A stretch of 30,163 nt of DNA, taken from a virus. Its lineage: Duplodnaviria; Heunggongvirae; Uroviricota; Caudoviricetes. Of the stretch, positions 22,724 through 26,018 are shown one piece after another. The position numbers and the translations under genes are program-made. The stretch lies in the IMG/VR virus record IMGVR_UViG_2850796239_000002, one strand, 5' to 3'. Within the stretch, counting starts at the first letter, position 1. Each line of letters starts with the position of its first letter. The notes below the pieces were generated by a model. It did not search any database, was not told the origin of the DNA, and worked only from the letters and a program-made list of their open reading frames with translations.

Positions 22724-23512
22724 TTAATCTATTTCAAAATAACGTTCAATATTATATGCATTTTCAAAGAGTGTCATATCCTTCTTTTTTATTAGTTTAT
22801 CAGCAAAGATGTCATACTCTTTCGCATTCTGGAGCTCTTTATCAACAGGCATATCCTCTGATTGCATACCGCCATACATACCTTTGGGGCCATATCTGAC
22901 TAAATGTGTTAATTCATGGCAAAGTGATGAAACTTTAGAATCCTTTCCTGTCATTGGTTTACATACAAACCGCTGGCCTATTCTTATTGTCACTACATCT
23001 ACATATTTGTCTGGAGAAACACCTATAATATGATCAGGGGTGACGTTAGCAGTATAAGCATCATTGTCCGTAGAATTTACAAAATTGCCACACTTCCACT
23101 TAGTAACATCTTTATCATAGTAATTATCATTACTATCAAGATATCTATCCCTAAAAGTAACTTCTCTGCACTCCCCTTTATCAGCAGATAATTTATTACA
23201 TATCATTTTCATTCTGTCCACGGCTTCTTGAATAACTGCTCGCGCACTTTTTGTTTCTTTTGTTACTTCTCCGTTCAGTTTAAATTTTATGGTTATTATT
23301 TTTTCAGATGGCACGCCAAATATCCTCCTGAATTCCTCTTCTGCTTCATCATTCCAGTGCGTTAACGTTTCTACCCTTTTATCAATTACCTTTTTTTGTT
23401 CCTCTAGAGATTCCTTCATCATTTTCTTGAATTGATTCGTAACTTGAAATTCCTGTATGCATTGTTCAGTTTTCTGATTTTCACCACTTGAACTACCTCT
23501 ATCATTACTCAT
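22724..23512 (-). CDS. Putative zinc-metallopeptidase-like T6SS cargo effector (HExxH motif), 262 aa
   Basis: Start overlaps the vgrG stop by 8 bp; contains SSLCHELTHLVRYG (HExxH); strongly AT-rich relative to vgrG. Confidence 0.5.
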   Translation of the reverse strand: MSNDRGSSSGENQKTEQCIQEFQVTNQFKKMMKESLEEQKKVIDKRVETLTHWNDEAEEEFRRIFGVPSEKIITIKFKLNGEVTKETKSARAVIQEAVDRMKMICNKLSADKGECREVTFRDRYLDSNDNYYDKDVTKWKCGNFVNSTDNDAYTANVTPDHIIGVSPDKYVDVVTIRIGQRFVCKPMTGKDSKVSSLCHELTHLVRYGPKGMYGGMQSEDMPVDKELQNAKEYDIFADKLIKKKDMTLFENAYNIERYFEID

Positions 23513-26018
23513 GCACGCCTCCCAATATCATGTCTATATTTTGATTCAATAATCTGACATCAATTGTTTGTTTGGAATCAGTATTAAAATTTTCTGTATA
23601 CCCATTCTCATCAGTAATACCTTCTTTTTGAGTGCCATCAGAAAAACATGCAATATATTTTGTGTTGGCATAAGGTAGACCATCATCATCAGTAAAAAGG
23701 AACTTAGCATTAAATTCCCCGCTCTCAATCACTGGAAACGCCATCAGTTCCGGCGTCAGCTTCGCCTTCGGCTTACGCCCGTAATATCCGGCCTTAACGT
23801 TATATTCTCCCGGCGTTCCCGCTTCTATCCCGCAGGCATCCAGCCGGATGTAGCTGCCACCGCCGTTAAGGGTGATTTTCTTCTTCGCGGTGATCTTGAT
23901 CTCATCTTCCGTACTGGTGATCACTATCGATTTCTGTGCCAACAGTTCCATCAGATCGTTCTGTGCCTGTACCGAGATCGCCCCCTTGTTGGCAAACAGC
24001 TTGATGCCCGCTTTACGCACAAACACGCTTAGCGCCTGTCCCACGCCGATAAACATATTTTTCACCACGCCGACATCGGCGTTGTTGCCTGCGTTGGCTA
24101 TCACATTCTTTGCCGCCGCCAGTTGCAGGTGCTCTCCGCTGGCGATCGCCATACCCTTGGGTGCGCTTAGCAGGATCGCCGCCTGCGTCAGATCTTTTAC
24201 ACTCTGCTGCAACAGCGCTATCTGTGATGATAGATCTGCCGGATCGGCATTCGCCGTCTGCGCATCAGTGGACAGCGACTTCATCTGTGACTGTGCGCCA
24301 TCCAGTATTGCCATTGCCGGAGCCATTTCGCGCACCTGACCCTGCGCCTTGTCCTGCGCATCGGCGCTGATAAATATCCCTTTCTTAGCCCGTACTGCAC
24401 CCCACAGATCGGTTCGCAGTTCAAAGCCTTCACCGCGCTGCTGTTTCCCGGCATCCACCAGATGACCGAGGTTTAGCTGGCTCTTGCCGCCGTACTCGGT
24501 ACTGACCTTGATATGCTCTTTGCCGCGCTCATCGTCGAGGCGGATTTTGTTGTTCGCCGGGGTTCTGAGGACGTTACGCTTATAGTTCTGAATGGTCACA
24601 TGGTCAGTGTGTGCCGAGTCGTGTTTTACGCCTGCAATATAAGGTCGGTCCGGGTTGCCTTCCTCAAAGGCGATACTCACTTCCGTTCCTGCCAGCAGCG
24701 GCAGGTGCAGGCCGTAGGTGTCTCCCGCATACGGGCGCGACTGGCGTACCCACAGGCTTTCGTAGCCCGGCTTCCACGTATCACGGTCAAAGTCGAGATT
24801 GACCCGGTAGCGCCCGTCCTTATCGATATGGGCGTAGATGTCGTTCTTCACCGTACTGGTGACCCGCGCCGGGAGCGTGCCGGCCATTACCGGGCGGGGG
24901 ATAAGCGCCGGGCGGTAGCCGTAGCGTTCTGAGTACGGGATGACCGTAAACGTCAGCTCATAGCTGCGGTCACGCGCCGCGCAGGCCGTCACGCCGGTAA
25001 TCAGTACGCCCTTGCGAAATACCGCAGGCGCGTCGTCGCTCTGGACCTTTATCTCCAGCCCCGGCGTCAGCAGTGAACTGGTGCTCTGGCCCTGCAGAAT
25101 GACCTGTTCATTCAGGTAGCGTTCGTGGCGGATACGGGCATAAAACGCGCCGCTTTCCGCTGCCTCTTGATCGCCTTTTTGCAGGAAGTTGTCGGCGTAG
25201 TGGTAGGCTTCGCCGTAGGTGGTGTTATCGCCCCGGTGGCGTCATGCTGCTCAGTCATCATCTCCGCTGTGGCGGTGCGGTAGTTGTAGTCCCGCGTGGT
25301 GACGCTTTTTTCCACCACGCTGTATGCGGTGTTCAGCCCCCATACGGCTTCCGTTTCACCATCAAACAGCCCTGAAGGATGACGAAGCGGCAGCGTCAGT
25401 CCGCGCTCATAGCCGCTCTGGTCGTCGTAAAATTCAATAACCTCGATTTTCAGCCGCGCGTCAGTGGCGAAGCGAAACCAGATACCCACTTCCGACAGCA
25501 GGCGTGAAATAAACGTCAGGTCGTCCTCGCCATACTGCATCACCTGTTCGCGGGCCGGGTATTCGCTTTTGAGGTTAAACACGAAGTCCTGACCGCGCAT
25601 CTGGTGCCGCTCGCGCAGGATTTTTTCGACGATTTGTGGCACCGTCAGATTCTGGTAGATGGCATTCTGGCGGCTGCGGGCCAGCAGCGCCATACGGGGT
25701 TCAAGACGTACTTCGTAACGGCTTCATCCTGTGACGATGACAGGTGTTTAAAGCCGGTGATGACCCCGTACAGGGTGCGCAGGGGGCCTGCACCGGCATT
25801 CCCTGTACCGGCGGTGCCGTCAGGCTGAATGCGCCGTCCTGCATCAGCACCAACTCCGGCGTGATGGCTTTATCGGTACTGGTAAACTGAATGTCGTAGC
25901 GGAACGGGGTACTCAGTTGTTCGCGGCCTTCGAAGGTCAGCACATCCACCGGACTTTGCAGGCCGCGGATTTTGAGTTTGTGGTGTGAATGGTCGAAGTT
26001 TATGGCAGGAATATTCAT
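23505..26018 (-). pseudogene. vgrG: T6SS spike protein VgrG, disrupted by at least two frameshifts (three ORF pieces: 25701..26018, 25112..25693, 23505..24992)
   Basis: N-terminal MNIPAINFDHSHHKLKIRGLQSPVDVLTFEGREQLSTPFRYDIQF..., mid-region YEVRLEPRMALLARSRQNAIYQNLTVPQIVEKIL... and gp5-like C-terminal region ...GNPDRPYIAGVKHDSAHTDHVTIQNYKRNVLRTPANNKIRLDDERGKEHIKVSTEYGG... are collinear VgrG segments in different frames. Confidence 0.75.

Follow-up and report, generated by a model that had tools for sequence, protein, structure and literature searches.

A vgrG pseudogene in a Shigella T6SS remnant: one probably genuine frameshift and two probable homopolymer under-calls

The window, by which we mean the whole stretch of 30,163 nucleotides analysed here, carries a vgrG gene on its minus strand (Table 1), which is read from 26018 to 23505 and spans 2514 nt. 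The gene is 96.8% identical to intact E. coli genes over 99% of its length (megablast; 96-97% for the alignments overall), and at least 80% of it is covered in 999 genomes (megablast). Because of this identity and this number of genomes, the match to vgrG cannot be attributed to chance. A single uninterrupted vgrG ORF is absent: the window contains three 1-nt deletions, one of which persists in all independent assemblies. The initial annotation had described the interval as a broken vgrG, and the three deletions and the identity to the intact genes confirm this description. It had also placed three collinear segments in different frames; the collinearity stands, but fragments 1 and 3 are in one frame (26018-24992 = 1026 = 3 x 342) because the three deletions total -3. 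The coding segments number four, in frames 0, -1, -2 and 0.

Table 1. Features of the vgrG locus in window coordinates
Feature	Position	Strand	Description
vgrG (T6SS spike, TssI) pseudogene	23505..26018	-	Collinear and full length relative to intact E. coli vgrG
ORF fragment 1, 105 aa	25701..26018	-	VgrG residues 1 to ~77, remainder out of frame
ORF fragment 2, 193 aa	25112..25693	-	gp27-like VgrG part, Phage_GPD; 39-aa out-of-frame tail past lesion 3
ORF fragment 3, 495 aa	23505..24992	-	OB fold, T6SS_Vgr, DUF2345, C-terminal extension; PF04717, PF13296, PF10106
Lesion 1	25782..25786 (plus-strand G-run, G5)	gene on -	Gene-strand C6 to C5; drafts G6
Lesion 2	25720..25721 (plus-strand GG)	gene on -	Gene-strand CCC to CC, codon ~100; GAAGCCCGT to GAAGCCGT
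Lesion 3	25231..25234 (plus-strand C4)	gene on -	GGAGG or GGGGG to GGGG; drafts C5
Cargo (effector) gene, 262 aa	22724..23512	-	Intact, downstream of vgrG; overlaps vgrG stop by 8 nt
Hypothetical gene, 308 aa	21725..22651	-	Intact; 3' of effector; conserved in E. coli cluster
IS4-family element	26868..28165 (approximate)	-	NF033591, 363 bits; inserted in separate vgrG 5' remnant upstream of pseudogene
vgrG 5' remnant	28165..28406	-	Equals vgrG nt 1-242, 92% identity; cut by IS

When three bases are put back, the gene encodes an 838-aa protein without stops, which contains the peptides that had been predicted to be restored by extra bases and shares 98.4% identity across 832 aa with the intact VgrG of E. 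coli strain G3X16-2, WP_136655681.1. The repaired protein scores above the cut-offs of two VgrG family models, with 452 bits against 121.8 for TIGR01646 and 241 bits against 186 for TIGR03361, and its Pfam domains are arranged in the order Phage_GPD (32-345), Phage_base_V (399-465), T6SS_Vgr (486-587) and DUF2345 (605-745). The gp27-like hub, the gp5-like OB fold and the beta-helix thus follow one another in VgrG order. The nearest relatives in the PDB are 2p5z (1028 bits) and 6sjl (654 bits), the latter aligning end to end.

The lesions were placed by alignment to intact orthologues from G3X16-2 and QA-1986, a check that had been proposed together with the initial annotation, and this alignment located exactly three gaps within the gene, each of 1 nt. 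One gap falls in the C4 run at which a frameshift had been expected. Two further frame changes had been anticipated in the N-terminal region; their number was correct, but they lie at ~25786 and ~25721 rather than at ~25775.

The pseudogene is surrounded by IS4, IS66 and IS110 insertions and by truncation, and the boundaries of the IS4-family element in Table 1 are taken from a second copy and its flanks. Homology to the E. coli T6SS cluster ends at ~20855, inside a gene of the KPHS_23130 family, and beyond this point the place that tssM and tssA have in E. coli is taken by a Mu-like prophage together with elements of the IS66 and IS4 families. A complete T6SS core cluster around vgrG was not found in the window and its flanks. 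In the flanks tssH is split, though any split at the base level in that region may likewise be an error. The 262-aa cargo protein has identical or near-identical E. coli orthologues that are named 'M35 family metalloendopeptidase' in RefSeq and occurs exactly on nine contigs; searches of Pfam and NCBIfam returned no match for it. The 308-aa protein may be the immunity partner of the effector.

The window is identical to CP026875.1 over 15 kb. This record is probably the chromosome of Shigella boydii ATCC 35964 because the next accession, CP026876.1, is a plasmid of that strain. Another member of the accession series, CP026832, is cited as a PacBio sequence from Kim et al. 2018 (PMC10132075). 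We infer the platforms of CP026875 and of the draft contigs from contig structure and from the accession series. Three drafts, L013, L014 and L018, encode the exact effector protein of the window and show no substitution relative to it over 6061, 6058 and 3445 nt, respectively, although they derive from other isolates of the same lineage, which may belong to other strains. They differ from the window only at 25234 (C5 vs C4), 25786 (G6 vs G5) and 26776 (C7 vs C6), and the window is 1 nt shorter in each case. Lesions 1 and 3 are therefore not found in these drafts. The base lost at lesion 1 is also present in the sister chromosome CP026845, the sequence being otherwise identical.

The same direction of difference is observed elsewhere in the window. 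In comparison with a further draft, L012, the window is shorter at 19458 (C6 vs C5), 20227 (C4 vs C3) and 28169 (G8 vs G7), and in comparison with an E. coli Mu-like prophage, it is shorter at 5697 (G6 vs G5) and 15223 (C5 vs C4), each of which splits a phage gene. In all eight such single-base differences in G/C-run length, the window is the shorter sequence, and it is longer in none; the sole single-base difference in the opposite direction, at 24718, is one in which L012 is shorter. In a census of runs in the 6-kb overlap, both G/C runs of at least 6 and one of six G/C runs of 5 were under-called, while all 35 A/T runs of at least 5 were unaffected. Between the sister assemblies CP026875 and CP026845, 7.5 kb contain ~17 substitutions and ~12 indels, most of the latter in homopolymers, and the two disagree at lesion 1. 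The shortened homopolymers include unrelated intergenic, IS and prophage runs, the shortening is absent from the same-lineage drafts, and besides vgrG the apparent under-calls split an IS transposase and two phage genes, one for the baseplate and one for another part of the virion. The errors that remain in long-read assemblies are dominated by homopolymer indels, which produce false pseudogenes (PMC12007338).

Lesion 2 behaves differently. It occurs in the window, in the CP026845 and CP026824 chromosomes and in all three draft contigs. The 729-aa ORF that is expected with lesion 2 only, the G5 run being restored, has exact matches on 148 contigs (NCBI and Logan), and the 124-aa ORF expected with lesion 2 and a restored C6 run has exact matches on six. 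In contrast, the 193-aa, 495-aa and 105-aa fragments of the window are matched exactly on two, two and one contigs, all of which are CP0268xx chromosomes; the 105-aa fragment results from lesion 1 and the other two from lesion 3. In searches of complete E. coli genomes with 60-nt queries, lesions 1 and 2 appeared in none of the matches listed, and lesion 2 was absent from all 94 matching genomes. A search with the out-of-frame tail peptide returned two clusters only, and their Logan contigs were divergent alleles at 91% identity, so that it does not bear on this lineage.

Lesion 3 is common to three CP0268xx assemblies and to the upstream vgrG paralogue, a distribution that can only be explained by common descent or by a systematic error tied to the sequence context. 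The possibility that it arose by loss of a non-homopolymer base from a GGAGG allele, creating the C4 run, was ruled out, since same-lineage drafts carry G5 on the gene strand. The argument that all lesions are real, as lesions 2 and 3 are common to two chromosomes and to the paralogue, was overturned for lesion 3 by the drafts and the exact-sequence counts.

Considering these observations jointly, we believe, with a probability of roughly 85%, that the window combines one real frameshift, lesion 2, in a T6SS remnant with two under-calls, lesions 1 and 3. The sequence comparisons indicate that lesion 2 is a genuine frameshift throughout this Shigella lineage, whereas lesions 1 and 3 are most likely long-read homopolymer under-calls of the assembly, the true run lengths being 6 and 5. 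On this reading, vgrG/tssI would be the spike gene of a T6SS cluster of the E. coli type, of which a remnant is left in a Shigella chromosome. The organism would carry a single inactivating mutation, the loss of a C from CCC at codon ~100 (25720-25721), which would split the gene into an N-terminal stub of 124 aa and an ORF of 729 aa that lacks the N-terminus. The frameshifts at 25782-25786 and 25231-25234 would be consensus under-calls in a long-read-only assembly and not biology. The mutant gene presumably yields no functional spike, and the T6SS locus as a whole is presumably nonfunctional because IS elements and the Mu-like prophage cut the cluster short. The initial annotation had called vgrG a multi-frameshift pseudogene and had offered two causes, the decay of a Shigella-like T6SS remnant or errors at homopolymers. 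The gene remains a pseudogene through lesion 2, but its decay is overstated by this term, as lesions 1 and 3 are absent from the drafts and fit the pattern of G/C under-calls; both proposed causes apply in part, decay to lesion 2 and most likely error to the other two. Longer runs that would give an intact gene had also been envisaged; two runs are indeed longer in the drafts, but the gene is not intact because lesion 2 stays.

Among the alternatives, the one that survives best, although we regard it as unlikely, is that all three frameshifts are real and represent successive slippage deletions in a vgrG that was already dead and is more decayed here than in its relatives. Selection on the locus would have ceased once lesion 2 and the truncation of the cluster existed, lesion 3 is common to three related chromosomes and the upstream paralogue, and the drafts are other isolates, so that slippage private to one strain at two runs is conceivable. 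Moreover, 1-nt deletions private to one assembly occur in every sister genome, and two of them lie in short runs, AA at 24564 and CCC at 25554, which indicates that some indels of the series depart from the long-G/C-run pattern. However, it is difficult to reconcile real deletions with several indels over 6 kb in which no substitution separates the window from the drafts, each of these indels shortening a G/C run of the window; with the shortened runs in prophage and IS genes; and with fragments that are confined to one accession series when the alternative allele is found on 148 contigs.

A related proposal, to which we give still less credence, is that the G/C-tract changes reflect real recurrent slippage, which either arose independently in unrelated E. 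coli lineages and in the vgrG paralogues that lie in tandem or was spread by gene conversion. If this were true, such sites would be mutational hot spots that speed the inactivation of vgrG once the T6SS is dispensable. It is more doubtful again that the G/C tracts are phase-variable contingency sites, at which slipped-strand mispairing toggles vgrG and the assemblies capture different states. The run length at 25786 does vary among closely related assemblies, and the G5-to-G4 state of lesion 3 is found in four of the best 40 matches listed, all complete E. coli genomes, with both of the two that were checked being flagged as frameshifted. Nevertheless, the tracts are only 5-6 nt long, compared with at least 7 nt in typical cases; lesion 2 fixes the gene in the OFF state whatever the tract lengths; unrelated intergenic, IS and prophage runs are shortened equally; and SCU-124, whose vgrG has three further homopolymer deletions, points to assembly error.

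The opposite extreme, an intact vgrG in the organism with sequencing errors at all three lesions, is very improbable. Two of the three lesions do behave like errors, and the repaired ORF is otherwise free of defects and closely identical to the intact VgrG, but every assembly examined carries lesion 2, the three draft contigs included, its two ORFs recur across the 148 and six contigs in NCBI and Logan, and a CC/CCC sequence is not a typical under-call site. Least credible of all is a functional split VgrG, or a frame recoded by ribosomal frameshifting or transcriptional slippage, for which nothing specific speaks, the identical 729-aa ORF on many contigs being expected of a clonal lineage, and against which stand the absence of a slippery heptamer or long A/T run on inspection of the sequence at lesion 2, the assignment of the N-terminal ~100 residues to the gp27-like hub domain (Phage_GPD), and the replacement of T6SS homology by IS elements and prophage from ~20855.

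The preferred reading, one real frameshift and two under-calls, has consequences for the use of the record. CP026875.1 calls for caution, as apparent under-calls affect at least eight of its G/C homopolymers within 30 kb. A frameshift at a G/C run of at least 5 in this record should not be taken as evidence of a pseudogene, and pseudogene counts and estimates of decay drawn from it, and probably from the sister assemblies, would be inflated unless the sequence is polished with accurate reads.

The biology itself is ordinary and already known, since genome decay in Shigella has been amply described, as have its defunct T6SS remnants. Fragments of vgrG are already in public records (EGI92635.1 from S. 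boydii 5216-82 and VDG90438.1 from S. dysenteriae), and in one genome comparison two S. dysenteriae strains lacked T6SS ORFs except for homologues of VgrG, ClpV and PrkA (PMC4445032). The closest intact counterpart is the E. coli T6SS-1-type VgrG with DUF2345 and a C-terminal extension (WP_136655681.1), which has equal length and domain order; its solved relatives are an N-terminal fragment of E. coli c3393 (2p5z) and EAEC VgrG1 (6sjl). The window differs from this type in its broken frame, with one break being real and two probably artefacts. The surrounding genes resemble the E. coli cluster in the succession of effector, hypothetical genes and the downstream KPHS_23130-family gene, but IS elements and the prophage replace the genes that lie beyond the latter. 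The error pattern resembles the known class of long-read homopolymer errors (PMC12007338) in that only G/C runs are affected, they are always shortened, the changes are absent from same-lineage drafts and genes are split; here it is known at the assembly level. Finally, a single-base frameshift fixed in the lineage, IS insertions and truncation are also features of the IS-mediated genome decay of Shigella, as in the T6SS remnants of S. boydii and S. dysenteriae, from which the window shows no substantive difference except that the decay in its record is exaggerated by assembly errors.

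A complete, collinear vgrG gene lies on the minus strand of the window, and the initial annotation correctly described this full-length gene as broken. Intact E. coli chromosomal genes annotated as "type VI secretion system Vgr family protein" match it at up to 96.8% identity across 99% of the length, and at least 80% of the gene is covered in 999 genomes by nucleotide search. Alignment to two intact E. coli orthologues, G3X16-2 (L001 5986..8496) and QA-1986 (L002 2980..5496), shows three internal gaps in all, and at each of them the window lacks 1 nt. Because these deletions sum to -3, the first and last ORFs share a frame (26018-24992 = 1026 = 3 x 342); the gene comprises four coding segments in frames 0, -1, -2 and 0, and not three segments in three frames as had been proposed. 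The number of N-terminal frame changes, two, was anticipated correctly and their position was not, since they lie at about 25786 and 25721. Restoring all three bases produces a stop-free protein of 838 aa, which contains the peptides predicted by the initial annotation and shares 98.4% identity with the VgrG of intact G3X16-2. The repaired VgrG matches TIGR01646 (452 bits) and TIGR03361 (241 bits), harbors the Pfam domains Phage_GPD, Phage_base_V, T6SS_Vgr and DUF2345, and aligns with 2p5z and 6sjl, which are solved structures of E. coli VgrG.

Features of the vgrG locus and its neighbors, with exact-sequence look-ups of the vgrG alleles
Feature	Position	Strand	Detail	Public contigs with exact sequence
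vgrG	26018..23505	-	2514 nt	
vgrG ORF fragment 1	25701..26018	-	105 aa, window version	1, a CP0268xx chromosome
vgrG ORF fragment 2	25112..25693	-	193 aa, window version	2 only: CP026875.1, CP026845.1
vgrG ORF fragment 3	23505..24992	-	495 aa, window version	2, CP0268xx chromosomes
ORF with C6 restored, lesion 2 present			124 aa	6, e.g. EGI92635.1, S. boydii 5216-82
ORF with lesion 2 only, G5 restored			729 aa	148 (NCBI + Logan), e.g. VDG90438.1, S. dysenteriae
Lesion 1 (orthologue alignment)	G-run 25782..25786	+	gene strand C6 -> C5	
Lesion 2 (orthologue alignment)	GG 25720..25721	+	gene strand GAAGCCCGT -> GAAGCCGT	
Lesion 3 (orthologue alignment)	C4 25231..25234	+	gene strand GGAGG or GGGGG -> GGGG	
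vgrG 5' remnant	26838..26862 and 28165..28406		nt 1-242, 92% identical to pseudogene	
IS4-family element within the remnant	~26868..28165		flanking CCCTGCGC repeat	
Second IS4-family copy	~18907..20228		ORFs 18977..19600 and 19603..20199	
Baseplate J/gp47 gene			ORFs 4916..5680 and 5392..5991	
Effector gene	22724..23512		262 aa	9
ORF in AT-rich DNA	26182..26643		153 aa	
Upstream tandem vgrG paralogue	L006 ~3260..5519 (CP026875.1)		just past the window's right end	

We consider it probable, at about 85% and judging from sequence comparison, that vgrG carries one fixed frameshift, lesion 2, and that lesions 1 and 3 are under-called G/C homopolymers. In this most likely state CCC has become CC at codon ~100, which leaves a 124-aa stub and a 729-aa ORF from which the initial ~108 residues of the gp27-like hub are missing. 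Independent assemblies of the same lineage were found through the exact effector protein of the window. Three of these drafts, which are other isolates and not demonstrably the same strain, show no substitutions relative to the window (GCA_019513285.1, 6061 nt; GCA_014021235.1, 6058 nt; GCA_012668945.1, 3445 nt); their sole differences are one extra base at 25234 (C5 vs. C4), 25786 (G6 vs. G5) and 26776 (C7 vs. C6), and all three carry lesion 2. The C4 run highlighted at the outset is thus present in the window but is most likely an under-call, and of the multi-frameshift decay originally described, lesion 2 stands in all assemblies whereas lesions 1 and 3 are absent from these drafts. Against the draft GCA_000193915.2 the window also lacks one base at 19458 (C6 vs. 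C5), 20227 (C4 vs. C3) and 28169 (G8 vs. G7), and against an E. coli Mu-like prophage of 98% identity it lacks one at 5697 (G6 vs. G5) and 15223 (C5 vs. C4); it is the shorter sequence in 8 of 8 G/C-run length differences. Across the 6-kb overlap the shortening affects both of the G/C runs of at least 6, one of six G/C 5-runs and none of 35 A/T runs of at least 5. In long-read assemblies the chief residual error is the homopolymer indel, a known source of false pseudogenes (PMC12007338). The platforms of the drafts and of CP026875 are deduced rather than taken from the record; a passage of PMC10132075 cites CP026832, from the same accession series, under Kim et al. 2018 as a PacBio sequence. 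The exact look-up counts agree with lesions 1 and 3 as artefacts and lesion 2 as real.

The same shortening touches other genes. The deletion at 5697 splits the baseplate J/gp47 gene, and that at 15223 splits a virion gene; the error signature of both matches lesions 1 and 3. In the second IS4-family copy the transposase is frameshifted as written, and the frameshift at 19458 is probably an artefact, given the C6 of GCA_000193915.2.

That all three lesions are real was suggested at first by the sharing of lesions 2 and 3 among the window, CP026845.1 and the upstream tandem vgrG paralogue of the same genome; the drafts and the ratio of indels to substitutions overturned this view, which we now regard as improbable. 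In a comparison of 15,052 nt the window shows no difference from CP026875.1, and it is probably the S. boydii ATCC 35964 chromosome, as the adjacent accession CP026876.1 is a plasmid of that strain. Over 7.5 kb, CP026875 and CP026845 differ by approximately 12 indels, mostly single homopolymer bases, against approximately 17 substitutions, a ratio far too high for ordinary divergence, and they disagree at lesion 1. The paralogue and three CP0268xx assemblies all show lesion 3, which requires either common ancestry or a systematic error specific to the context. A caveat to the under-call reading is that private vgrG deletions in CP026845.1 (AA -> A at window-equivalent 24564) and CP026824.1 (CCC -> CC at 25554) fall in short runs. 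The paralogue is approximately 92% identical to vgrG in its first ~1.5 kb, is more divergent thereafter, and has all three lesions at identical positions. For lesion 2 this points to gene conversion or common ancestry, and for lesions 1 and 3 to under-calls that depend on context and recur in both copies. Elsewhere, tssH reads as split at differing places in CP026845.1 and CP026824.1, and in CP026845 an IS110-family element also splits it; CP026845.1 has one more in-frame TTATGG unit (6 nt) than the window at 22542, within the ORF 21725..22651, and a T8/T10 length difference occurs at 21976.

The lesion 3 state (G5/GGAGG -> G4) is shared by at least four complete E. coli genomes, counted among the 40 best matches listed; the vgrG genes concerned have different cargo. 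Both genomes inspected, SCU-124 (L007) and S65EC (L008), have vgrG annotated "frameshifted", and three further homopolymer deletions in the SCU-124 gene suggest assembly error there too. Of the 94 complete E. coli genomes matching that stretch, none of the best matches listed carries lesion 2, which looks specific to this Shigella lineage.

Phase variation at the G/C tracts is very unlikely: the tracts are short, vgrG would be off regardless of tract length, and unrelated DNA shows the same shortening. Still less credible is a vgrG that is intact in the organism. The initial annotation had envisaged that runs one base longer would give an intact gene; the drafts do have longer runs at 25234 and 25786, but no assembly lacks lesion 2. 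Recoding or a functional split VgrG is the most implausible of all.

E. coli T6SS clusters have the order tssH, vgrG, effector, hypothetical gene, KPHS_23130-family gene, tssM, tssA. Homology to these clusters ends in the window at about 20855, within the KPHS_23130-family gene; beyond it lie elements of the IS66 and IS4 families together with a Mu-like prophage (1..16795). Upstream, a 2.4-kb insert, not found in the E. coli clusters compared, contains a separate vgrG 5' remnant, which an IS4-family element interrupts and which then breaks off into AT-rich DNA; the 153-aa ORF encoded there has no family match. Because of this loss of homology and the insert, the locus is structurally a T6SS remnant, regardless of base-level accuracy. 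The effector gene is intact and overlaps the vgrG stop. Some RefSeq records call an orthologue M35 family metalloendopeptidase, but the product has no match to Pfam or NCBIfam models. The gene is orphan cargo retained behind a dead spike.

Two thirds of the apparent vgrG decay is probably assembly artefact, of which this record holds many, and there is no new biology in the decay itself. Shigella genomes normally show pseudogenisation and IS-driven decay. The window vgrG fits this pattern, and its fragments are already in public records. One genome comparison in S. dysenteriae reported two strains without T6SS ORFs except for VgrG, ClpV and PrkA homologues (PMC4445032). By sequence and architecture, the window gene belongs to the E. 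coli T6SS-1-type VgrG family, but it differs from that type in having neither an intact ORF nor a complete cluster.
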